Positions 966 through 20,543 of a stretch of 25,952 bases of DNA are shown here, in pieces. The stretch covers positions 3,361-29,312 of the forward strand of contig JAWCLA010000005.1 in the NCBI GenBank assembly GCA_039091855.1, read 5' to 3'. The first letter of the stretch is position 1. Every line of letters begins with the position of its first letter. Made by a program: the position numbers and the translations under genes. A model generated the notes under the pieces. That model saw nothing but the letters and a program-made list of their open reading frames with translations. It was not told the DNA's origin and searched no databases. This DNA is from Candidatus Aenigmatarchaeota archaeon (lineage in GTDB: Archaea > Aenigmatarchaeota > Aenigmatarchaeia > QMZP01).

Positions 966-2117
966 TTACCTTCTTTTCAGTTTGATAGGGCTTATCTTTC
1001 TCAGGCTTTCAACTATTGGCGGAAGCACGTCCAAAACGTATCCTATGTCTTCCTTTGTGTTGTCCTTTCCGAGAGTCATTCTGAGTGAGCCGTGTGCCTT
1101 CACGGGGCTGAGCCCTATTGCGGTGAGAACGTGGGAAGGAGTAAGCGATTCGCTTGAGCACGCGCTTCCTGTTGAGGCGCAAACCCCTTTTATGTCAAGG
1201 TGCAGCACTATTGACTCTCCTTCTATGTAGTCAAAGCCGAAATTTGTGTTGTTTGGCAGGCGATTCTGCCTTGAGCCATTCAACCAGGAGTCAGGAATTT
1301 TAAGCACACCATCTATAAGCATGTCCCTGAGTTTTGTGAGATATGCTGCTTCCTTGTCCATGTTTTTCAGGGCAAGCTCGGCTGCCTTTCCGAACCCAAC
1401 TATTCCTGCCGTGTTTTCAGTTCCTGCCCTCATCTTTCTCTCCTGAGAGCCGCCTGTTATGAGAGGCTTAATGGAAACTCCGCTCCTTATGTAAAGGCAA
1501 CCAACTCCTTTGGGACCGTAAACCTTGTGAGCAGATGCAGAGAGAAGGTCTATGTTCATTTTTTTCACGTCTATCGGAATTTTACCGAATGTTTGGACAG
1601 CATCAGTGTGGAAAAGTATACCATGGTCTCTGCATATCTTTCCTATCTCTGCTATCGGCTGTATGGTTCCTATTTCGTTGTTCGCGTGCATTATGGAAAC
1701 AATCTTGGTTTTATTTGTTATTGCCTTCTCCAAATCTTCCGGGTTCACGAAGCCGTCTCTTGATACAGGCAGGTAGGTTACTTTCACTCCCTCCTTTTCA
1801 AGCGCTTCGCAGGTGTGGAGAATGGCATGGTGCTCGAAAGAGCTTGTTATTATATGGTCTCCTTTTTTGACAGCTCCCCTGAGCGCCATGTTGTCTGACT
1901 CGGAGCCGCCTGAACTGAAAACAATCTCGTAAGGCTCTGCGTTTATTACTTTCGCTACTTTTGACCTGCTTTCCTCTATCGCTTCCTTAGCCTCCCTGCC
2001 AAGGGAGTAAAGGCTCGATGCATTGCCATACTTTTGGCTGAAAAACGGCAGCATAGCCTCAAGAACTTCCTTTGCCACAGGTGTCGTTGCAGCGTGATCC
2101 AAATAGACCCTTCTCAT
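966..2117 (-). CDS. iscS: Cysteine desulfurase IscS/NifS (group I)
   Basis: YLDHAATT, HTDAVQ, SAHKVYGPKGVG (PLP lysine), RAGTEN, STGSACSS (catalytic Cys). Confidence 0.97.
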   Translation of the reverse strand: MRRVYLDHAATTPVAKEVLEAMLPFFSQKYGNASSLYSLGREAKEAIEESRSKVAKVINAEPYEIVFSSGGSESDNMALRGAVKKGDHIITSSFEHHAILHTCEALEKEGVKVTYLPVSRDGFVNPEDLEKAITNKTKIVSIMHANNEIGTIQPIAEIGKICRDHGILFHTDAVQTFGKIPIDVKKMNIDLLSASAHKVYGPKGVGCLYIRSGVSIKPLITGGSQERKMRAGTENTAGIVGFGKAAELALKNMDKEAAYLTKLRDMLIDGVLKIPDSWLNGSRQNRLPNNTNFGFDYIEGESIVLHLDIKGVCASTGSACSSESLTPSHVLTAIGLSPVKAHGSLRMTLGKDNTKEDIGYVLDVLPPIVESLRKISPIKLKRR

Positions 2118-3190: not shown

Positions 3191-6100
3191 TTACGAAGCC
3201 ATGCACCTCATCGGCTTCTCAAGCGCCTTTTTCTCCGAGAATTCCAGCCTGTCCCTGAACTCTTCCTGCTTGCCGGCATTCCAGTTCCTTACGGGCCTGA
3301 AGTATCCAACAATCCTTGTGTAGACCTCGTTCTCTCTGCCACAAGTTGGGCATATTTCAACCTCTCCCTTCTGGTATCCGTGCTCCTTGCAAATGCTGAA
3401 AGTGGGTGTTATAGAGAAGTAAGGAAGTTTTGTGTTGAACGCTATCTTCTTCACGAGGGTTTTTGCCGCCTCGCCACTTGAAAGCCTCTCACCAAGGAAT
3501 GTGTGGAATATTGTCCCTCCTGTATAAAGAGGTTGTATGTCGTTCTGGTGCTCAAGAGCCTTTACCAAGTCGTCTGTGTAATTCACTGGCAGTTGGGTTG
3601 AATTTGTAAGATATGGTTCCTTCTCTCCTGCGGTGTATATGTCCGGATACATCTGCTTGTCAAGCCTGGCAAGCCTGTATGAAGTCGATTCGGCAGGCGT
3701 TGCCTCCAGGTTGTAAAGGTTTCCTGTCTCCATCTGGAACTGCCTTATCATATCCCTCATAAATTTAAGGACCTTTATCGTGAATGCCTTTCCCTCCGGT
3801 GTTGAGATGTCCTTCTTCAGGAAGTTGACGCAGCACTCGTTCATTCCACACAGGCCGATTGTTGAGAAATGGTTGTTGAACGTTCCCAAGTATGTCTTTG
3901 TATAAGGCATAAGCCCGTTCTGTAGGTTTTTCTCAATAACCTTCCTCTTTATCTCCAAAGCGTCCCTTGCCAAAAGCATATAGTGCTTAAGCTTATCGAA
4001 GAACTCCTCCTCGCTCTTTGCCTCATAACCAATCCTGTTCATGTTTATTGTGACCACTCCTATGGAACCCGTGTTGTCTCCAGGTCCCCACATGTTTCCA
4101 GGCCTGTTCATAAGCTCTTTCTGGTCTATATTAAGCCTGCAGCACATTGCCCTTATCGCACCTGGGTCCAAGTCGCTTCCAACATAGTTCTGGAAGTATG
4201 GAGTCCCGTATTTTGCTGTCAGCTCGAAAAGCAGCTTTGCATTCTCGCTTTCCCAATCGAAATCCTTTGTCACATTGTAGGTGGGTATGGGGAATGTGAA
4301 TATTCTTCCGTTCGCATCGCCTTCCAGCATCACCTCAAGGAATGCCTTGTTTATCATGTCCATCTCCTTCTGGCAGTCCCCATAAGTGAAGTCCTGCGGC
4401 TTTCCGCCAACTATTGCTGGCTCGTTCTTCAAATCCTCGGGAACAGTCCAGTCAAACGTGAGGTTAGAAAACGGGTATTGTGAATTGCCGCTTATAAAAA
4501 CCTTTCCATTTCTTCTAACAATTACTGTGCCGTTGGTCGTCGTCGGACACCACACCATCCCATCATAGTCAACATCCTCTATTCTCCCCACCTGCGTAAA
4601 ATCATGCTTTATAATTCTTACAGTATAAATCCCGTTTTCGTTCAAAGAACATGTGCTTCCCCATCCTGCCTTTACAGCAAGCTCCTGAAATATATCTGCA
4701 TCCTCTTTCTTCTTTGTATAAATCTTATTCTCCTTTGACCAGCCATCTGCTCTCATATAAGTTTCAAGGAATTCTCTTGCCTGCTCTGTTGAAAGATCTC
4801 TTACTGCAGAAGGAACATCTTTCTTGTATTCAGGAAAGAATTGTTTGTAAATTCTTTTTGAATCTGGTCTGCTTAGCCTGAATCTTACGCAGTTTCTTTT
4901 TCCGGTATATCCAGAAGCTCTCATCATCTCATCAAAATTAATTCCAAGATTACCAAGGGTCCCTCTTATTTCAACGCAGTTTTCAGGATTAATTTCAGCT
5001 GACTGGTGTATTGCTGTCCTTTCATTTTTGCAAAGACTGCCCTCTGAAACTATCCAAGATAAAAGGTTTACCATGTCTGAATTCATTTCCGTGCCTTTGA
5101 ATCTTCCTCCCAATGGCACAAGCGGCGTCTTGGTTTTCAGTTTATCTGCCTCCTCAAATACGTATTTAGACTCAGAAATCCCTTTCTTGTAATTATGTAT
5201 TCTTCTTAGAACCCTGTGATTAGGAGTGACCAATTGATCTGTTATCCTATTTACCAGTCTCTTCATCTTGCCTTTATAGTGATATTTTGTCATTCTCAGA
5301 ACAGGCAGGTATTCTATTTCCTCGCTTTTCATATTAAATGTGGCTATTAACTCTCCTTCTTTTAAATTTACACCCCTTTTCCATCCATCCTTGGTAAGGA
5401 TTTCTGTATCCTCACTAAAGCATCCCCACCTTGAAGGTATATTAAGTGAGAAAACGAGCTGCTGCATGTTCTGCTTTACTGCCTTGTAGTCAAGCTTCTC
5501 AACCTTCACGAAAGGCGCAAGGAATGTGTCAACGCTTGAGAATGCCTGAGCGCCTGCGAACTCCATCTGCAAGCAGCCGATATAGTTTACCATCTGGTGA
5601 ACAACCGTTGAAAGGTGCTTTGCCGGCTTGCAGTCAACCTTGTTCGGAACACCGCCAAAACCCCTCACGAGAAGGTTCTTTAGGGACCAGCCGGCACAAT
5701 TGTGAGCCAAAATACCATTGCATAAAAACGTGTGGGTTTTTGTAGTAATGTCATAAACAAATTCACTGTCATTTTTTATATACTCTATCTTCCTTAAGCT
5801 GCTGAACTGCTTTTTCTTGTAGAATTTCTTGGAATATTTGAAATCCCTTCCTATTTTCAGGCTTTCGGTGAAAAGATGTGATTTCTCCTGCGGTATGAAT
5901 AATGTGAGGGAATAAAGCTGCTTTCTCGGGGAGATTATGGTTTCCTTATATTTTCTCTCCCCAAAAGACTCGATTGTGCATAATGATGAGTTTATCCTTT
6001 GACATTCCAACCAAAACTGGATTTGGCTAAGAAGGGTCTTCGAGGTCATTCTTATGTTTACTCTTGATACCCATGGATCATCATTCCTAACAGCACCATC

Positions 6101-7978
6101 ACCATCTATGATCCCTGATATCATACCGCCGATAAATTCAGGGTTGTAATTCATAAAGTCGATAGGAAGATTCTTGTTTTCCGAGTATGGTCTGATAGTT
6201 GCAAATAGTGTCTGCATATCATGTGGAAGGCTGTTTATTGGAACATCAAGTATCATACTGCCTTCAATATGCTGTATACCGGCATTAGAACTTCTCTGTG
6301 AAAGGTTGTAGGCTATTCCGTTAATGTCAAGATATGAAACAAGCTTTCGGAAAACAGCGTCTTCAGCTGCCATCTCGAAGCTAAGGTACCCTTTTTTGTA
6401 ATACCCTTCTGATATGAAAAGTCCTATGAACCATCCATCAATTGCGGCCATGTTGATTTTATTATGTGGGCTCAACTCAAAATTGGGTGTTATGACATAA
6501 TTATTAAGGGTTATTTCGTCCGCGCGTTTTTCCTTTCTGCTATAAAATTCCGGAATAAAAACAGGTAGACTAAAGTTTGATTCACATGACTTGCACCTGT
6601 AATAGTCCTTCTCACCATCCTTTAATCTCTTTCTGGACCTTGTTTTAATTATATTTATTGAGTTGCATACAGGACAGGCAGAATTCTTGGTATCATCAAG
6701 GGTGATGAAGGGATGGTCTGCTGTGACTATTATATTGTGTCCATTGAACGAATTGAATGATATAAGAGGCTTGTCTGACTTGTGCCTAAGCAACCTCTCT
6801 ATGTCGGTCCATCCACCTTCATCAAGAATTTCATAGTCAGTTGAATATTTTATCTCGAATCCGTTATCTGTTTCTATAGGGGTATCAACGAGGTCAAAAA
6901 GCTGCTCAAGGCTAAGCGTAAGTATATCTTTTGTTTTCTTGTGCCTGACCACAACAACCTCATTCCTGTAAAAGGAATACCCTATCACCCCGTGTGACAA
7001 ATCGTGTATGTGGAAATATCCCTTCCTGTGAGCCTCCGCAATCGCAGGGGTGTACATCCTTGTAAGGTTGTAGTTGGCCATAACCTTTCCCGCTGCATAA
7101 AGAAGCAGTCCTGAAAATGAGTATTGCTCGTTGCTGTTCTCCCTTACCCTCCAGTCTTCCTGGTTTATGTAAGAGTCAATTGTCTGCTCAACATCCACAA
7201 ATGTTGACTTTGTTTCCCTTATCTTTGCCTGCTGCTCCCTGTAAAGTATGAACGCCTTAGCCGTCTTCGCGTGTCCGTTCTCTATCAGTATCTTCTCAAC
7301 TATGTCCTGTATCTGCTCAACCTGCGGTGGGTTCTTGTCAGTAAACCTTCCTTCCAGTGCCTCTACAACCTTGTCGGCAAGCCCCTCTGCTATGCTTTTG
7401 TCAGTCCCTCCAACAGACTCAGCTGCCTTCCATATAGCGTTTACTATTCTTTCCCTGTCAAACTTCACTACCGTTCCGTCCCTTTTTATGACATAATGAA
7501 GTTTCGGCTTCAGTCCGAGCCTTTCCCTTTCCTCTGCGAGCTTCTTCAGCTCTGCCTCAAATGATGTTATGTCAGTGAATTCCTTGTAAACAGAAGCGTA
7601 TCTTATGTATGCAACCTTGTCGGTCTCCTTCAGCTTCTTCATCACAAGCTCTCCTATGAATTTTGTAGAAACCTCTGGCTTCTCCGCCTTCCTAAGTTCG
7701 CTTTCAATCTCGTCCACTATCCTCTCTATCTGCTCTTGTGTTATTGTCCTTTTCTCGCAGGCCTTTGTTATGCTTGTCTGCAGCTTTCTCCTATCATAAT
7801 TTTCCCTTCTGCCGTCCTTCTTTATCACCGCCAAGTCAACGGCCTCAACCCTCTCGTAAGTCGTGAACCTCTTCCCGCATTTCTCGCACTCCCTTCTCCT
7901 TCTCGTAATCATTAGATCAGAAGTCTCCCTCTTGTCAATTACCTTGTTTTCCTCAGAACCGCAATAAGGGCATTTCAT
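3191..7978 (-). CDS. nrdD: NrdR repressor fused to class III anaerobic ribonucleotide reductase NrdD, with two inteins (1595-aa precursor, about 856 aa spliced)
   Basis: Start reassigned to ATG 7978 (MKCPYCG) with GGAGG upstream. NrdD motifs: own ATP-cone (VIKRDG), HIHDL, Y|CAGWSL, GAQAF, FTFPIPT, RAMCCRL finger loop, EATPAES, YLTNSTQ, zinc site CKEH...CPTC, glycyl-radical YTRIVGY. Confidence 0.95.
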   Translation of the reverse strand: MKCPYCGSEENKVIDKRETSDLMITRRRRECEKCGKRFTTYERVEAVDLAVIKKDGRRENYDRRKLQTSITKACEKRTITQEQIERIVDEIESELRKAEKPEVSTKFIGELVMKKLKETDKVAYIRYASVYKEFTDITSFEAELKKLAEERERLGLKPKLHYVIKRDGTVVKFDRERIVNAIWKAAESVGGTDKSIAEGLADKVVEALEGRFTDKNPPQVEQIQDIVEKILIENGHAKTAKAFILYREQQAKIRETKSTFVDVEQTIDSYINQEDWRVRENSNEQYSFSGLLLYAAGKVMANYNLTRMYTPAIAEAHRKGYFHIHDLSHGVIGYSFYRNEVVVVRHKKTKDILTLSLEQLFDLVDTPIETDNGFEIKYSTDYEILDEGGWTDIERLLRHKSDKPLISFNSFNGHNIIVTADHPFITLDDTKNSACPVCNSINIIKTRSRKRLKDGEKDYYRCKSCESNFSLPVFIPEFYSRKEKRADEITLNNYVITPNFELSPHNKINMAAIDGWFIGLFISEGYYKKGYLSFEMAAEDAVFRKLVSYLDINGIAYNLSQRSSNAGIQHIEGSMILDVPINSLPHDMQTLFATIRPYSENKNLPIDFMNYNPEFIGGMISGIIDGDGAVRNDDPWVSRVNIRMTSKTLLSQIQFWLECQRINSSLCTIESFGERKYKETIISPRKQLYSLTLFIPQEKSHLFTESLKIGRDFKYSKKFYKKKQFSSLRKIEYIKNDSEFVYDITTKTHTFLCNGILAHNCAGWSLKNLLVRGFGGVPNKVDCKPAKHLSTVVHQMVNYIGCLQMEFAGAQAFSSVDTFLAPFVKVEKLDYKAVKQNMQQLVFSLNIPSRWGCFSEDTEILTKDGWKRGVNLKEGELIATFNMKSEEIEYLPVLRMTKYHYKGKMKRLVNRITDQLVTPNHRVLRRIHNYKKGISESKYVFEEADKLKTKTPLVPLGGRFKGTEMNSDMVNLLSWIVSEGSLCKNERTAIHQSAEINPENCVEIRGTLGNLGINFDEMMRASGYTGKRNCVRFRLSRPDSKRIYKQFFPEYKKDVPSAVRDLSTEQAREFLETYMRADGWSKENKIYTKKKEDADIFQELAVKAGWGSTCSLNENGIYTVRIIKHDFTQVGRIEDVDYDGMVWCPTTTNGTVIVRRNGKVFISGNSQYPFSNLTFDWTVPEDLKNEPAIVGGKPQDFTYGDCQKEMDMINKAFLEVMLEGDANGRIFTFPIPTYNVTKDFDWESENAKLLFELTAKYGTPYFQNYVGSDLDPGAIRAMCCRLNIDQKELMNRPGNMWGPGDNTGSIGVVTINMNRIGYEAKSEEEFFDKLKHYMLLARDALEIKRKVIEKNLQNGLMPYTKTYLGTFNNHFSTIGLCGMNECCVNFLKKDISTPEGKAFTIKVLKFMRDMIRQFQMETGNLYNLEATPAESTSYRLARLDKQMYPDIYTAGEKEPYLTNSTQLPVNYTDDLVKALEHQNDIQPLYTGGTIFHTFLGERLSSGEAAKTLVKKIAFNTKLPYFSITPTFSICKEHGYQKGEVEICPTCGRENEVYTRIVGYFRPVRNWNAGKQEEFRDRLEFSEKKALEKPMRCMAS
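4484..5422 (-). mobile_element. Intein 2 in nrdD (313 aa, LAGLIDADG-like, ends in GN)
   Basis: IPSRWG|CFSEDTEILTKDGWK, block B VTPNHR, LLSWIVSEG and FLETYMRADG, C-terminus YDGMVWCPTTTNGTVIVRRNGKVFISGN|SQYPFSN. Confidence 0.93.
5699..6976 (-). mobile_element. Intein 1 in nrdD (426 aa, Ser1, LAGLIDADG endonuclease, inserted zinc ribbon)
   Basis: VIGY|SFYRNE..., block B VTADHPF, FIGLFISEG and ISGIIDGDG, C-terminus VYDITTKTHTFLCNGILAHN|CAGWSL. Confidence 0.93.
7535..7978 (-). other. nrdR: Full-length NrdR domain (zinc ribbon plus ATP-cone) at the N-terminus of the nrdD ORF
   Basis: MKCPYCG...KVIDKR...RRRRECEKCGKRFTTYER, VIKKDGRRE.YDR.K, and DKVAYIRYASVYKEF. This is the whole NrdR signature, with no stop before NrdD. 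Confidence 0.92.
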
Positions 7979-7981
7979 ATA

Positions 7982-8128
7982 TTTCGCCTCCTGACAATTC
8001 AATCTCAACGACTTGACGGGGAAGGTGTCTCCTGACACCTTCAGGCAAGGTTTCGCCTCCTGACAATTCAATCTCAACGACTTGACGGGGAAGGTGAGTC
8101 ACAGACTGATATAAAGTCTGTCACCTTC
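7982..8128 (-). repeat. Tandem pair of a structured leader element (46-bp perfect direct repeat plus variable hairpin)
   Basis: + strand TTTCGCCTCCTGACAATTCAATCTCAACGACTTGACGGGGAAGGTG at 7982-8027 and 8051-8096. Each copy continues into a GAAGG...CCTTC hairpin, ending at 8042 and 8128. Confidence 0.95.
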
Positions 8129-8206
8129 AGCCTGTTTGTCCCCGTTATAGCTTTGGCTGGATGTAGTAAAGCCTAAAAAAACAAACGGGGAGAGGGTGGG
8201 AAAGGC

Positions 8207-8276
8207 AAACTACCACTTGGTCATAATAACACAAGCACTTGTGCCTTATCCCACGCTCCAACACAACATCTTGTAG
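8207..8276. promoter_or_regulatory. Tandem NrdR-box-like operators
   Basis: ACACAACATCTTGTAG (8261-8276) fits the NrdR box consensus acaCwAtATaTwGtgt. Weaker boxes are ACACAAGCACTTGTGC (8229-8244) and AAACTACCACTTGGTC (8207-8222). Offsets are 32 and 22 bp. Confidence 0.75.
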
Positions 8277-8295
8277 TAAACTATTTTACTTAAGG

Positions 8296-8303
8296 TATTT
8301 AAA
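8296..8303 (-). promoter_or_regulatory. TATA box of nrdR-nrdD-nrdG
   Basis: TTTAAATA on the minus strand. The expected start site near 8272 falls inside the best NrdR box. Confidence 0.6.
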
Positions 8304-8330
8304 TAAATTTGGATTGTTGAAAAGATATTT

Positions 8331-9254
8331 CTAAAAATCTCCTTTGTTGTGAAGATTTTTTCGTTTTTGACTTTCAACTTTCTCCCAGAATTTCACAACG
8401 CTTTCCCATTCTGTTATCGAAACAGGCCTGTTTATATCAGGAAATCTCGAAGCCCTCCAGCAAGGCCTGTATTGAGATAGTATATTCACATAGGTATTCT
8501 TTCCGATTTCCTGCGCTATCCAACTGAGTACAGGTTTTGCATCGCATTCTATATGGCCAGGCATCACCAAAACCCTTATCATCAAGTCGCTGTCCTTCTT
8601 CGCAGCCAGATGGTTCCTCTTTGCCGCCTCTGGATAGTTTTGAGTTTGGCTGAGTCTCCTTCCGCACTCTTCTTTGAAATACCTGAAATCAAGCAGGTAG
8701 ACATCAACTATTCCCCTAAGAAGTTCTGCTGTCTTCTCAGAATAGTAGGCATTGGAATTGAAAACAATTGGAATGTTCCCCTCTGCCTTTTCCAACACCT
8801 TCAAAATGAAGGGGACATAGGGAGTCGGGTCTCCACCGACAAAATTTATGTTTTTACATACAGGAGCCATGCTCTCAATCCATTCTGCAACCCTTTCGAT
8901 GGTCCAACTTTCTCCCACCTGATAGAAAATGCTCGCAGGAGCGTTTTGGCAGTAGCAGCAACGCATTGTACATCCAGATTCAAAAAGCGTTGCCGAGGGT
9001 ATAAGCTCCTCTTCCTCTCCCCAATGCGTATGCGCTCCAAAAATCTTCCACTCCTTTCCGACGCCACAGAATCCAATCTCGCCTTCCAGCCTGTTAACCC
9101 CACACTTCCTCTCGCACAACTCACATTTTTCAAGGATTTTCCAAGCTTCCTTTATTTTCTTTTGAAGCAGGCCTGTTTCCTTGGCAATATGGAATCTGGG
9201 CTTCTCCTTTCCTTCCAGAATCCGCTTGTAGTGTGGAAGCAAATGCAATTTCAT
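8331..9254 (-). CDS. PflX-like radical SAM Fe-S protein
   Basis: CELCERKCGVNR...G.CG, HWGEE, CTMRCCYCQN, NINFVGGDPT, DVYLLDFRY, RVLVMPGHIEC, QYRP. Confidence 0.88.
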   Translation of the reverse strand: MKLHLLPHYKRILEGKEKPRFHIAKETGLLQKKIKEAWKILEKCELCERKCGVNRLEGEIGFCGVGKEWKIFGAHTHWGEEEELIPSATLFESGCTMRCCYCQNAPASIFYQVGESWTIERVAEWIESMAPVCKNINFVGGDPTPYVPFILKVLEKAEGNIPIVFNSNAYYSEKTAELLRGIVDVYLLDFRYFKEECGRRLSQTQNYPEAAKRNHLAAKKDSDLMIRVLVMPGHIECDAKPVLSWIAQEIGKNTYVNILSQYRPCWRASRFPDINRPVSITEWESVVKFWEKVESQKRKNLHNKGDF

Positions 9255-9319
9255 AAGAAAGAATTAACCAATGGAGTTTATATGGGATAACACCCACTTA
9301 TTTATATTTTTATTGAGAG

Positions 9320-9555
9320 TAACTTCATTAAGGAGTTTTTGAATCTCGCATCTGATTTTTGCAAGCTGGTCTTCCACAGCCACAATCTAAAGGTCATGCA
9401 CATACAGCAGGCGACCAATCCCTGTGCAGTCAGGTGCAAATCCTTTATTGACAACTGAAAAGGATGAAACAAGAGACAGGAACGCAATCAGGGTTAGAAT
9501 TGCAGAAACATAATTCTTGATTTTGTGTGCATACGCTTGCAAAATTATTAACCTC
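9320..9555 (-). pseudogene. Multiply frameshifted remnant of a small Cys-rich (probably lipid-anchored) protein
   Basis: Fragments across three frames join collinearly: FASVCTQNQELCFCNSNPDCVPVSC / HP / VNKGFAPDCTGI / VACCMC / LDCGCGRPACKN / RCEIQK. Confidence 0.6.
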
Positions 9556-9558
9556 GTT

Positions 9559-11049
9559 TCAAACCCTACTGAACAAATGCTCCCCCTTCCTTGGTTTTCC
9601 CTCAAACCTCTTTCTGAATTTCAAGTCCCTAAACGTGCCTGCCTTAACACCAAGTTGAGCGTTCAGCCTTTCAGAAGTTTCTGGCATGAAGGGACTTATC
9701 AGGATTGATATAACCCTGAGCGACTCCAAAAGATTATAAACAACGCTCTCCAGCTCCTTGCCTTTCAGCTTCCAGGGCTCCTTCTCATTTATGTATTTGT
9801 TAACTGCCCTAATGAAATCAAAAATCCCAGTCACGGCGTGATGAAGCTCTACATTATCTACATACTTCTCAATTTTTTTGAAATCAAGGTTTCTTGAAAG
9901 CTCGTCCTTTCCCTCAAACTTGTCCAGTCCTGATTTCTCCGCTAACGTGAGCACCCTGCTCGCAAGGTTTCCCAAATCAGAAACAAGCTCACCGTTTATC
10001 CTCTGGACTAAAGCCTTCTCGGAGAAATCACCGTCATCCCCCAGAGGAATCTCCCTGACAAGGAAATATCGCACTGTATCCACCGGGTATTTCTCCATAA
10101 GCTTCATAGGATCAACGACGTTCCCTTTGCTCTTGCTCATCTTCTCCCCGTCTATAGTGAGCCAGCCGTGGGCGAAGACCTTTTTCGGAAGGGGGAGCCT
10201 GCAGGACATAAGGATGGCTGGCCATATCACGGAATGAAACCAAAGGATTTCCTTTGCCATAAGATGGATGTCTGCCGGCCAAAGCTTCCTGAAATTCTCG
10301 CCAGGATAGCCTATGCCACTCAAATAATTTGTTAAAGCGTCCACCCAAACGTAAATAACGTGTTTTGGATCTCCTGGATATGGAATTCCCCACCTGACAG
10401 TTTCCCTCGTTATGCTCAAATCCCTTAATCCAGCCTGCACCCTGTTTATTATTTCCTGCCTTCTGTTTTTGGGAGAGATGAATTCTGGGTTCTTTTTGTA
10501 AAAATCCAGAAGTTCAGACTGGTATTTGCTCAGCCTGAAGAAGTATGACTCCTCCTTAACCTTCTCCACTTCCCTCCCGCATTCAGGGCATTTGCCATTG
10601 ACGAGCTGAGTTTCTGTCCAGAAGCTCTCGTCTGGTGTGCAGTACCATCCCTCGTACTCTCCCTTGTAGATGTCCCCTGCTTTCTGCATAAGCTTTACTA
10701 TCTCAACAACAACTCTTCTGTGCCTCTCCTCTGTGGTTCGTATGAAATCGTCATTGGATATGTTCAGTTTCTTCCACAACTCCTGAAACCTCTTTACGAC
10801 AGAGTCAGCAAACTCCTTTGGCTCCTTTCCTGCATTCCTTGCCGCTGTCTCAATCTTCTTCCCGTTCTCGTCAGTCCCTGTGAGAAAGAAAACATCCTCC
10901 CCCTTCAGCCTGTGCCACCTCGCCAAAACATCAGCAACGATGGTAGTGTAGGCGTGCCCTATGTGTGGGATGTCATTGACATAGTATATTGGGGTGGTGA
11001 TGTAGAACTTTTTGTCAGGCTTTGGCTTTTTAACAGTCTTTTTATTCAA
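9559..11049 (-). CDS. metG: Methionyl-tRNA synthetase (short form, no C-terminal dimerisation domain)
   Basis: FYITTPIYYVN..PHIGH, GTDENG, FIRTT, CTPDE...CPEC knuckle, YVWVDAL, KMSKS. Start set at TTG 11049 after RBS GAGGTG. The track start at 11079 overlaps the upstream gene. Confidence 0.95.
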   Translation of the reverse strand: MNKKTVKKPKPDKKFYITTPIYYVNDIPHIGHAYTTIVADVLARWHRLKGEDVFFLTGTDENGKKIETAARNAGKEPKEFADSVVKRFQELWKKLNISNDDFIRTTEERHRRVVVEIVKLMQKAGDIYKGEYEGWYCTPDESFWTETQLVNGKCPECGREVEKVKEESYFFRLSKYQSELLDFYKKNPEFISPKNRRQEIINRVQAGLRDLSITRETVRWGIPYPGDPKHVIYVWVDALTNYLSGIGYPGENFRKLWPADIHLMAKEILWFHSVIWPAILMSCRLPLPKKVFAHGWLTIDGEKMSKSKGNVVDPMKLMEKYPVDTVRYFLVREIPLGDDGDFSEKALVQRINGELVSDLGNLASRVLTLAEKSGLDKFEGKDELSRNLDFKKIEKYVDNVELHHAVTGIFDFIRAVNKYINEKEPWKLKGKELESVVYNLLESLRVISILISPFMPETSERLNAQLGVKAGTFRDLKFRKRFEGKPRKGEHLFSRV

Positions 11050-11750: not shown

Positions 11751-13037
11751 ATGGACTGGGTGGTTTTCGGGAAAATGATGTTTTATGTGTGCATAACACC
11801 TCTTATAATCTATTCCCTCAAGTTCTATGCTTTGGCAATATCCAGCATTTTCTACAAATATAAATGTCCATGGAAGGATTCAAAAAAGCCCCTTCCGAAG
11901 GTATCAGTTCACATTCCTGTCTACAATGACCCTGTTGTGGTCGAGTGCGTCAAAAGGTGCCTGAAATTTAACTATCCAAAAAGCAAGTATGAAATAATAG
12001 TGATAGATGACAGTACGGATGGGGAAACCTCAAAACTGCTAAAGGATCTAAAAAAGCGAAACAGGGGGTTCAAGATTTTGAGAAGGGATTCCAGAAGGGG
12101 ATTCAAGGCAGGGGCTCTAAACGATGCCACAAAAATCTCAAAGGGAGACATAATTGTTGTATTTGACTCCGACTACAGGCCGGAAAGGAATTTCCTCAAA
12201 AAGGTAGTCCAGCCGTTCCTGCAGAGCAAAAAAATCGCCTTCGTCCAGACAAGGTGGGACTACATTAACCCCAAAACAAACAGGATTTCCCGCCTAGCGA
12301 TGACATCTTATTCTGCCTTCCACCAGTGTTCTATGCCCATAAAGGAAAAAATAGGCACTGCCATATTCTGCGGGACTGGGGGGGCAATAAGGAAGGACGT
12401 CCTTATAGAGGCTGGCGGATGGAACGAGAAAAACATAGGGGAGGACATAGACCTAACTGTAAGAATTCTGAAGAAGGGTTACAGGCAGGCTTACCTTCCT
12501 TATGTCAAGAGCAAGGGAGAGGTTCCTGAAACAATTAAGGCTTTCGTTAAGCAGCAGCAAAGATGGGCATATGGGACAACAAAGGTTATGAAAGACTACC
12601 TTGGTGGTATAATAAAGTCATCAGATCTAACAAGAGCGCAAAAGATAGACATGATTTTCATAGTTTCAGGTTTTCTTGTTTTTCCTTTTATTTTGGGTGT
12701 GACTGTTTCAACTATGATAGTTATGTCACCTTGGTTTGGTCCTAACACAACGGGAATGCTGTTGGATATTGAAGGAATTTCTCGCTCTGTGAAGCTTGCG
12801 ATATCGGATATGTTCTCCTTGGAAGGAATAGCAATCCTCGTCTTGTCCTGTGGTTACATATTTGAGTGTGCTGTCGCAATGATAAAGACAAAGAATTACA
12901 GGAACCTCACAATATTGCCCTATATTTTTGCAGTGGGATTTATTGTTCAGGTAACCAACACGATAGCGGTTTTCAAGGCGCTTCTTGGAATAGAGCAGGG
13001 GTTTTACAGGACTCCAAAATCATCATACAGGGGATAG
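11751..13037 (+). CDS. Processive GT2 glycosyltransferase (cellulose-synthase-like)
   Basis: VSVHIPVYN, DDSTD, GFKAGALN, FDSD, VQTRW, GED, QQQRW (D,D,D,QxxRW), with N- and C-terminal TM helices. Confidence 0.9.
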   Translation: MDWVVFGKMMFYVCITPLIIYSLKFYALAISSIFYKYKCPWKDSKKPLPKVSVHIPVYNDPVVVECVKRCLKFNYPKSKYEIIVIDDSTDGETSKLLKDLKKRNRGFKILRRDSRRGFKAGALNDATKISKGDIIVVFDSDYRPERNFLKKVVQPFLQSKKIAFVQTRWDYINPKTNRISRLAMTSYSAFHQCSMPIKEKIGTAIFCGTGGAIRKDVLIEAGGWNEKNIGEDIDLTVRILKKGYRQAYLPYVKSKGEVPETIKAFVKQQQRWAYGTTKVMKDYLGGIIKSSDLTRAQKIDMIFIVSGFLVFPFILGVTVSTMIVMSPWFGPNTTGMLLDIEGISRSVKLAISDMFSLEGIAILVLSCGYIFECAVAMIKTKNYRNLTILPYIFAVGFIVQVTNTIAVFKALLGIEQGFYRTPKSSYRG

Positions 13038-19936: not shown

Positions 19937-20443
19937 TTACTTTGATTGCGTTATGAACCAGGCGGAAAAGCCGAGTATTGCAAGAAGCATCGCTATCGTA
20001 AGTATTTCTGTGCTTTCCAGGAAGTTCGTCCCGAATATTGCCGCTCCTGCGGAAACGGCGAATATTATTATACCTATCAAAAAAATCGAGCCCGTGAACA
20101 CCCACTTTGCCTTCTCGTTCTTTGTTATGTCCTCGAACTTTATGCCTATCAGCCCGAGAAGTATTATTATTCCGAGAAGCCCTGCTGCCACTATCAAAGT
20201 GAAGCCAAACGCATTTCCGAAGAAAACCACAATCCTAGGATTCCACAGAGAGAAAAGCATAACGAAAAGTCCCATAACTATGGATATCAAAGCCCTTGCG
20301 GACTTCTCAAGCTGCTTCTCCATAGCGTAAGAAAGCACACCATAAGTTAATGCAAGCGTAAGAAGGAATGGAAAAAGGTAAAGGAATATTCCCATTTTCT
20401 CGAGCCCGAGAATCATTGGCGGAAAGGGATTGGTTAATGCCAT
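19937..20443 (-). CDS. Multi-pass membrane protein (paralog B)
   Basis: Start reassigned to MALTNPF (20443) by collinearity with paralog A (MGIFLYLFPFLLTLALTYGVLSYA). Confidence 0.8.
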   Translation of the reverse strand: MALTNPFPPMILGLEKMGIFLYLFPFLLTLALTYGVLSYAMEKQLEKSARALISIVMGLFVMLFSLWNPRIVVFFGNAFGFTLIVAAGLLGIIILLGLIGIKFEDITKNEKAKWVFTGSIFLIGIIIFAVSAGAAIFGTNFLESTEILTIAMLLAILGFSAWFITQSK

Positions 20444-20446
20444 ACA

Positions 20447-20543
20447 TTTCGCCTTGCAACAATTCAATTTGCCGTTTTTTAACTTCCTGACTTGACGGAG
20501 AAGGCAGTTACACTGCCTTCCAATTGCACTTCGCCTTGTGACA
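20447..20543 (-). repeat. Third, diverged copy (plus partial fourth) of the structured leader element found upstream of nrdR-nrdD
   Basis: + strand TTTCGCCT-tgca-ACAATTCAAT-20 nt-GACTTGACGG-a-GAAGGcagt-tac-actgCCTTC (20447-20520), then after 8 nt cTTCGCCTtgTGACA. Confidence 0.85.

Follow-up and report, generated by a model that had tools for sequence, protein, structure and literature searches.

The nrdRD gene of a Candidatus Aenigmatarchaeota archaeon is preceded by a doubled, structured element that ends just before its start codon. The gene lies on the minus strand of a 25,952-nucleotide stretch of contig JAWCLA010000005.1 (assembly GCA_039091855.1, positions 3,361 to 29,312), the whole of which is referred to as the window. 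Two 69-nt units stand head to tail on the minus strand at 8128-7979 and stop 4 nt short of the nrdRD ATG, each of them built of a hairpin, a conserved box, a spacer and a 3' motif, here called S. The doubled leader probably represents two tandem copies of a lineage-specific, non-autonomous hairpin repeat with a motif at the Shine-Dalgarno position; it is neither an nrdD riboswitch nor a gene-specific RNA switch. Dozens of copies per genome occur in a few related hot-spring archaea, and this "leader repeat" family is most likely selfish DNA carrying its own ribosome-binding-type motif. The gene, the doubled unit and a third copy in the window are laid out as follows, all on the minus strand.

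3191..7978: nrdRD gene, 1595 aa, comprising an NrdR zinc ribbon, two ATP cones and the anaerobic ribonucleotide reductase NrdD
within 3191..7978: intein with a LAGLIDADG domain, interrupting NrdD
8128-8090: hairpin of the distal unit, defined by sequence and folds; its outer 7 bp, GAAGGTG/CACCTTC, are identical to the proximal copy
within 8090..8128: inner part of the distal hairpin, a different, largely palindromic 25-nt segment with a TTATATC loop and a 4-nt bulge
8089-8079: distal conserved box CCCGTCAAGTC (family consensus TCCGTCAAGTC)
8078-8062: distal spacer
8061-8052: distal S motif AGGAGGCGAA
8052..8078: distal spacer and internal S motif together (ATTGAATTGTCAGGAGGCGAA), from sequence and RNA fold
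8051-8043: linker between the units (ACCTTGCCT)
8042-8021: hairpin of the proximal unit, GAAGGTGTC-AGGA-GACACCTTC, defined by sequence, fold and alignment with the congener G002
8020-8010: proximal conserved box CCCGTCAAGTC
8009-7993: proximal spacer
7992-7983: proximal S motif AGGAGGCGAA
7982-7979: ATAT
7979..8009: proximal spacer and S motif (GTCAGGAGGCGAA) together with ATAT, placing GGAGG/GGCGA at the Shine-Dalgarno position
7978-7976: ATG of nrdRD
20444..20543: third copy, with S motif at 20543-20530, hairpin at 20520-20500, box TCCGTCAAGTC at 20499-20489, a spacer and a further S motif at 20461-20448
20443: ATG, preceded by ATGT, of the gene downstream of the third copy, encoding a 168-aa membrane protein

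A repeat search of the window returned two 46-nt copies, 100% identical and offset by 69 nt, together with a third related copy at 20441-20468, in which the motifs follow in the same order and end in ATGT-ATG. The spacer between box CCCGTCAAGTC and AGGAGGCGAA is 17 nt in each nrdD unit, so that the two units differ only in the hairpin top, which is 8 nt long in one and 25 nt in the other. RNA and DNA folding both give the proximal hairpin a 9-bp stem closed by an AGGA loop, and the distal one a 14-bp stem (8+6 bp as RNA, 7+7 bp as DNA) with a 4-nt bulge and a 7-nt loop. Sequence, repeat search and folds agree here with the first-pass annotation of the site, which had described tandem units sharing 46 identical bp under different hairpin tops and recognised no RNA family in them. 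A scan of the whole window against Rfam 15 gave no match at gathering scores, the five matches around the site at E≤10 are all sub-threshold and at chance level, and five other loci of the repeat matched no Rfam family. A second copy of the inner palindrome of the distal hairpin was not found in the genome at up to 4 mismatches. Within the nrdD pair (8043-8061, minus strand) RNA folding also has AGGCGA of the internal S motif pair with the linker UUGCCU in a local 6-bp hairpin; such a fold is predicted to mask the internal S motif and to leave the one adjoining the ATG open.

The same unit recurs throughout the genome (G000, a 689-kb assembly in 38 contigs, 84% complete), which was searched with a covariance model (R1) built from 31 units and with motif scans over the whole assembly. 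The covariance-model search proposed in the first-pass annotation recovered 44 copies in this genome, distributed over 23 loci in arrays of 1-6 units, and 14-43 in each congener with a broader model described below. A hairpin pattern gave 46 matches, of which 39 were kept after the removal by eye of 7 that lacked the flanking motifs, and in a pattern scan GTCACAAGGCGAA was counted 26 times against about 0.02 expected. Arrays follow the layout S-(hairpin-box-spacer-S)n with n = 1-6, where S stands for (T)GTCACAAGGCGAA; the unit consists of a hairpin with a fixed base GAAG...CTTC and an exchangeable top, the box (T/C)CCGTCAAGTC, a spacer of one of three length classes, and the 3' motif S. All 33 complete units are 65-68, 78-82 or 119-120 nt long. 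CCGT is invariant in 31/31 aligned units, and in the same alignment three inner stem pairs are changed on both sides in 16, 12 and 12 sequences; in a short-form alignment (A2, see below) 4 of the 7 hairpin pairs show both-side changes. Some hairpin versions reappear at several loci, and an identity of at least 93% is reached by four pairs of units from separate loci. In the four DNA contig sets considered, assemblies break at the repeat, and no joints or alleles were seen there.

Among relatives the distribution is narrow. With R1, each of the five species of the genus gives matches, and 36 genomes of other genera give none. For the broader model, R2, the 17 short forms of alignment A2 were used, five of them from congeners, so that those genomes match partly by construction; R2 finds matches in 12 of the 91 genomes of the order. 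Within the genus R2 counts 39, 43, 30, 31 and 14 copies, and outside it 23 in G072, a species of a different genus, with 0 in the sister species of G072, 6 in G024 and one weak match in each of five further genomes. Two of these five single matches were inspected: one is a hairpin without S, the other lies within apparent coding sequence. The G072 unit is 83 nt long and has the hairpin base GGAC...GTC, the same CCGT box and S, and a tandem arrangement, and that of G024 is compact, the hairpin being followed directly by TCCGTCAAGTTCRCAAGGCGAA. By eye, the last S abuts a start codon in about 18 of 26 matches in G003, in 7/20 in G072 and in 5/5 in G024; the other G072 matches lie inside arrays, or in arrays for which the piece examined holds no start, and two of the five in G024 carry an extra ribosome-binding motif between S and the start. 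Three copies (two in G003, one in G072) stand directly 5' of tRNA genes. A metagenome scan with the NrdR-like N-terminus yielded 31 loci, at best 63% identical, which by eye hold distant nrdR homologues with NrdR boxes and without the repeat (R1 gave one weak match); strain-level relatives were not found among them.

The position of the arrays relative to genes is strict. At 16 of the 23 loci, 2-4 nt separate the last S from the ATG of an open reading frame that has the same orientation. The genes downstream encode EF-1beta, S8e, L37ae, RpoN, RadA, FttA (a KH-domain termination factor) and NrdD, and further a ParA-type ATPase (preceded by six units) and several small membrane proteins; they are functionally unrelated. 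Tabulating downstream genes and their distance to the ATG, which the first-pass annotation had suggested, brought out a regular spacing but no common pathway. The remaining seven loci comprise a copy in antisense orientation, with a 21-nt direct repeat at its flanks, within a tRNA-Met intron, an array between two convergent genes, an array followed by a promoter-like stretch, a partial copy in an unassigned spacer, an array before a pilin-like gene and two arrays cut by contig ends. The three-unit array before the pilin-like gene (C12:15087-15330) ends S-GCTT-AAG where other loci read S-GCTT-ATG. The difference reflects either a mutation of the start codon or in-frame reading through the array from a start further upstream.

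The placement of S can be compared with the start regions of 621 crudely called genes. Genome-wide, GGTGA peaks at -9 from the ATG and GGCGA at -10, the latter mostly at repeat-bearing genes; the nrdD copy of S contains a full GGAGG, and in the congener G001 the equivalent of S reads AAGGTGAA. TATA-like hexamers peak sharply genome-wide at -30 to -26 from the ATG, a spacing which suggests that many genes here are probably leaderless. If leaderless transcription is the default, an insertion between promoter and ATG would be tolerated only when it brings its own ribosome-binding motif. In two non-coding contexts the last S is likewise followed by 4 nt and ATG: in the copy of the tRNA-Met intron (C11), where the ATG is the complement of the CAU anticodon, and in a copy of G072 (C12), where it overlaps the first base of the tRNA gene. 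The ATG in these places may be due to chance or be part of the target or of the element end.

Comparison of orthologous sites points to turnover. Upstream of nrdRD, the sequences of G002, G003 and G004 can be aligned to the window from a TATA-like box down to ...ACATCCAGC.AAAGC, and the species differ from there on. In G003 the nrdD site is empty, with 26 nt to the ATG including GGTGAA; in G002 one hairpin alone is present, alignable with the proximal one, and the CCGTCAAGTC box and AGGCGAA are missing; G004 carries a long hairpin insert of unrelated sequence, and G000 two full units. TCAGGAG in the nrdD S motif matches native sequence of G002, which suggests that S merged with the original ribosome-binding region. 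Elsewhere, the element is present before the ParA-type ATPase in 0/4 congeners against six units here, before S8e in one of three readable congeners (none in G003 and G004, nested hairpins in G001, with G002 cut by a contig end), and before L37ae in one of two (G003 empty, G001 with two diverged units). At EF-1beta the site is empty in G002, where nothing but TGATTTT separates the ATG from the stop codon upstream; G003 and G004 have the hairpin only, and G001 has another kind of hairpin. In the two species compared, both rpoN and the gene of a small membrane protein have the element in front of them; before acylphosphatase and L10e it stands in the congener and not here, and at RFC only an S-like motif is found here. 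Altogether copy number per gene ranges between species from 0 to 6. The mobile model outlined in the first-pass annotation implied empty orthologous sites, and such sites exist at nrdD (G003), EF-1beta (G002) and L37ae (G003).

Several properties look like those of a DNA element. GAAG-type hairpins lie inside the loops of other copies at several congener loci, and the 16S gene of G003 carries an insertion of about 160 nt with a GAAG-type hairpin, with another hairpin in the spacer after the gene. This 16S insertion (L123, G003:C42, about 1150-1600, minus strand) follows AAGTCGTAA; in the spacer a tRNA-Ala-like gene looks interrupted, and the hairpin then follows. Hairpin tops end in G-N-A triloops in 31/39 cases, 24 of them C-GAA-G, which we take to be a type of exceptionally stable DNA mini-hairpin. 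A G-T pair occurs in 9/39 stems; as it also pairs as G-U in RNA, it does not favour one level over the other. Against shuffled sequence, a 171-nt region gives a fold z of -4.2 as DNA and -2.05 as RNA. The antisense copy lies in a tRNA-Met(CAU) gene (C11, about 12040-12260) with a ~190-nt intron after position 37, and the T-loop of this gene seems to be interrupted further. ARAGORN found no tRNA in six repeat loci and 1-4 in the whole genome, so the tRNA genes referred to here were identified by eye; most tRNA genes of this genome are probably interrupted. The antisense intron copy, the convergent array, and the tRNA-5', 16S-insertion and nested copies are contexts unfit for an mRNA leader element, and the core hairpin is part of a broader superfamily of GAAG-type palindromes with selfish-DNA behaviour in the genus.

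A second repeat module is interleaved with the family. It has a hairpin GACG...CGTC whose loop contains the TATA-like TAACCAAYATAAYA, followed by TTTCCAAA, and occurs at C4:8790-8870, C6:9510-9595, C10:~5200-5290, C37:~4130-4210 and about 20 other places. Copies are often tandem and stand immediately in front of S motifs, and in one case the module stops 6 nt short of a tRNA gene; a portable promoter is a possible function.

The nrdRD gene has predicted regulatory sequence of its own upstream of the repeat, again on the minus strand.

8293..8306: TATA-like box of the putative nrdRD promoter (TTTATTTAAATACC), conserved in congeners
8276-8261 and 8244-8229: two 16-bp NrdR-box-like palindromes with centres 32 bp apart, conserved in 4/4 species
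8254-8196: conserved leader hairpin containing box 2, followed by CCCCGTTTG and by seven T at 8181-8175

An NrdR-box operator is characterised by two 16-bp palindromes spaced by some three helical turns at the promoter of an nrd gene; the upstream region shows such a pair and is the predicted operator. Similar palindromes precede nrdR homologues in other contigs. The two palindromes likely provide the gene-specific control of nrdRD, and together with the fusion of a complete NrdR-type N-terminus to the enzyme it would control, in an archaeon, they suggest autoregulation by the repressor domain. The leader hairpin and T-run (8175..8254) are conserved in congeners, with the repeat units inserted downstream. 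The stretch made up of CCCCGTTTG and the T-run could pair with a downstream AACGGGG, and this leader segment (8175-8254) may be attenuator-like.

The favoured reading, a mobile hairpin repeat, can then be put as a sequence of events. A unit would have been inserted between the conserved NrdR-box leader and the ATG, its S motif would have merged with the native ribosome-binding region (GTCAGGAGGCGAA), the unit would have been duplicated in tandem in this species, and the top of the distal hairpin would have been exchanged for another small palindrome. As DNA, the hairpin would be the part that is copied or moved by some enzyme; as RNA, the units would be passive passengers of the 5' leader in the form of stable stem-loops. 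Since the last S would supply a motif at the Shine-Dalgarno position, insertions just before a start codon and in this orientation would be tolerated, which would account for the bias in both position and orientation. Gene-specific control of nrdRD would come from the upstream NrdR-box promoter and not from the repeat. A mobile repeat explains the copy number, the patchiness, the empty sites, the nesting and the odd locations. Of the two readings offered in the first-pass annotation, a mobile element that supplies or targets ribosome-binding sites thus stands in outline, with its dozens of patchily distributed copies, site turnover, near-identical units, nesting and an S at the Shine-Dalgarno place; what did not emerge is a regular target duplication. 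Its other reading, a riboswitch-like regulatory RNA, is not borne out, as detailed below.

A number of findings weigh against the repeat being a mobile passenger, and they begin with the missing enzyme. Two IS200-type Y1 transposase genes are present, and only in G000; none was found in the 4 congeners (assemblies 78-92% complete), which carry 14-43 copies, so an expansion tied to the Y1 transposases of this genome alone was rejected. One Y1 gene has an in-frame TAG, and for the other no full-length frame from a start codon was found; the Y1 genes score above the cut-off of NF033573, and one reaches 30 bits with the REP-transposase model, whose cut-off is 80. The ends of the resident insertion sequences (IS), CCCCGTCAT..ATGACGGGG and CCGGTCACAG-type hairpins, are by eye unlike GAAG...CTTC. 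TnpB was not found, nor was a reverse transcriptase (RVT_1) in the 5 genomes, with which copying of leaders by reverse transcription was also discarded, and no transposition enzyme tracks the family across genomes. Direct repeats of at least 8 nt flank 8/60 hairpins against 2.9% of mismatched controls, and two of these reflect array periodicity; at 8-14 nt, with 21 nt at another copy, they have no fixed length and so do not amount to the target duplication of MITEs (miniature transposable elements with inverted repeats). Units are always preceded by GGCGAA and end in GGCGAA, as insertion 3' of a fixed 4-6-nt target, in the manner of an IS200/IS605-derived PATE, would give, but the first S of most arrays is complete (14 nt) and goes beyond a short target. 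The two IS200-type elements themselves lie at C37:6880-7790 and 8440-9610, each with its own end hairpins, and solo IS ends were noted at C2:21053, C6:53, C5:2776, C8:9676 and C35:14675.

Sequence conservation adds to these difficulties. The CCGT and AGGCGAA boxes are invariant or nearly so across three genera, and by hand count the 17 short forms of A2 all keep them 28 nt apart. The nrdD hairpin is common to G000 and G002, with its pairing kept through a both-side change: in G002 one stem pair is changed from U-A to C-G and one loop base differs. The same genes (rpoN, the small membrane protein and EF-1beta) are occupied in different species. S matches the anti-Shine-Dalgarno only weakly, with one C-A mismatch where a U in place of the C would pair; the comparison is with the canonical 16S 3' end of G003, the 16S gene being absent from the G000 assembly. 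Moreover, membership in a leader, transcription starts and any RNA function of the units are predictions from sequence. The fixed boxes, the 28-nt spacing, the kept nrdD pairing and the shared occupied genes are left unexplained by a mobile repeat, which keeps a functional module as a rival or as a later domestication.

Such a module would be a functional RNA leader in which the hairpin and the single-stranded boxes UCCGUCAAGUC and AAGGCGAA are bound in trans by a protein or RNA, or protect the 5' end; dozens of housekeeping genes would form one post-transcriptional regulon, with tandem copies as additional binding sites, and the module may originally have been spread by a mobile hairpin and then kept. 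The unexplained features just listed speak for it, the boxes staying constant or nearly so while the hairpin sequence changes, as do the both-side changes in 4/7 stem pairs and the strict placement before start codons, seen at 16/23 loci here and in the same pattern in G003, G072 and G024. The first-pass annotation had held that random position and orientation would speak against regulation; both are strongly non-random, which leaves room for a general, non-ligand role in the RNA leader. On the other hand, orthologous sites are often empty or hold the hairpin without the boxes, genes vary between species from 0 to 6 copies, and the antisense tRNA-intron, convergent-spacer and 16S-insertion copies fit no leader; in several relatives, moreover, a TATA-like box lies by eye so near the hairpin that transcription would begin inside it. 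We know of no candidate binding protein, and on balance such a module appears unlikely, if worth keeping in view. A more specific form of the idea, which we regard as distinctly unlikely, is that a mobile hairpin has wired a regulon, the boxes UCCGUCAAGUC and AAGGCGAA being read by one trans factor, so that with each insertion a gene without a leader, or one coupled to its operon, would gain a leader and come under shared control of translation or stability. If true, this regulon would join genes of translation, transcription, recombination, division and nucleotide reduction in a genome-reduced archaeon.

A different possibility is a portable promoter cassette in which a TATA-like box lies in the spacer and S in the interval from this box to a transcription start close to or at the ATG, giving leaderless transcription, with arrays acting as tandem promoters. 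It would suit a genome where most genes look leaderless and TATA-like hexamers peak at -30 to -26, and, by hand count, the 78-82-nt units have an A/T-rich block (AATAATAAT) at -33 to -25 from the ATG and the G072 units have CATATAGA at -31 to -24; the second module, with its TATA-like loop directly before S and before a tRNA gene, points the same way. However, such an A/T-rich block is missing at this position from short forms, among them the two nrdD units and several units of relatives; a conserved promoter lies 290 nt upstream of nrdD, and some units follow a stop codon within an operon, between two of its genes. Upstream of first S motifs, the A/T profile has no fixed TATA peak, and S as a mark of transcription start was discarded on this ground. 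A promoter cassette is very unlikely.

A further reading is a tandem riboswitch specific to ribonucleotide reductase, which would occlude the ribosome-binding site through CGUC/GGCG or UCAA/UUGA, the pairings proposed in the first-pass annotation. Two units do stand directly before the ATG, the CGUC/GGCG pairing is formable in 17/17 short forms, and RNAalifold selects it. Yet this helix is only 4 bp long including a G-U, shows no both-side changes, and is broken in 10/20 G072 units (8 with CCGTA and 2 with CCGG, by hand count); UCAA/UUGA can form at nrdD and, by eye, at the array of the pilin-like gene (C12), and is not kept in the rest of A2. There is no conserved multi-helix core, the single hairpin being the only structure that covaries; the downstream genes are unrelated, belong to no single pathway and in relatives include tRNA genes; the element is absent at nrdD in G003, and no Rfam family matches. 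The riboswitch reading fails in all three of its defining features that were tested, which makes it close to refuted and hardly credible as an account of the site.

If the leader repeat is a mobile element, its consequences reach beyond this gene. One selfish hairpin family can build much of the leader sequence in very small archaeal genomes, including the leaders of core genes such as those for ribosomal proteins, RNA polymerase subunit N, RadA and ribonucleotide reductase. For a mobile unit, insertion right before start codons with replacement of the ribosome-binding region is unusual, and such a unit, if confirmed, would be a natural portable leader for archaea with mostly leaderless genes. 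It is also a warning for RNA-motif discovery, as covarying stems and strict placement before start codons can stem from a repeat family and not from a switch. For the locus itself, the analysis separates the repeat from what is probably the real control, the NrdR-box promoter of the NrdR-NrdD fusion.

No description of the leader-repeat family was found in full-text literature searches, supplementary files not being covered. The bacterial REP/BIME elements, mobilised by RAYT, resemble it in their short G+C-rich palindrome with a conserved flank, tens of copies and mosaic arrays (here 44 copies, with the second module interleaved), as well as in differences between species and co-transcription with neighbouring genes. 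The leader repeat differs in its archaeal host, in standing 5' of start codons in one orientation where REP lie mostly after genes, and in a terminal motif placed where a Shine-Dalgarno sequence would be; no RAYT was found, and the Y1 genes are flanked by other hairpins and absent in 4/5 repeat-carrying species. Bacterial MITEs with a regulatory payload (Correia/NEMIS, ERIC, BOX/RUP) are small non-autonomous repeats located by genes and co-transcribed with them, bringing hairpins, promoters or processing sites. The leader repeat, in contrast, has no terminal inverted repeats beyond the hairpin and no regular target duplication, and forms tandem arrays ending in S. Rickettsia palindromic elements are likewise palindromic selfish repeats tolerated in unusual places, whereas most copies of the leader repeat are insertions in non-coding leaders. 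Tandem riboswitches and translational-operator leaders also place repeated structured 5'-leader units beside a ribosome-binding site, but the leader repeat shows no conserved ligand pocket, serves no one pathway and is not conserved at orthologous sites. Within archaea, the PATEs and SMR-A of Haloquadratum walsbyi are transposase-free, palindrome-bearing small mobile repeats, down to 52 bp and without target duplication (PMC3119063). According to the same study SMR-A elements insert into palindromes belonging to other elements, much like the nesting of one hairpin in another in the leader repeat (PMC3119063). Compared with PATEs as characterised there, the leader repeat has hairpins that differ from the resident IS200-type ends, a position before start codons and tandem arrays, and it belongs to another phylum and habitat. 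The nearest described systems are therefore REP/BIME, the PATE and SMR-A elements, and the regulatory MITEs.

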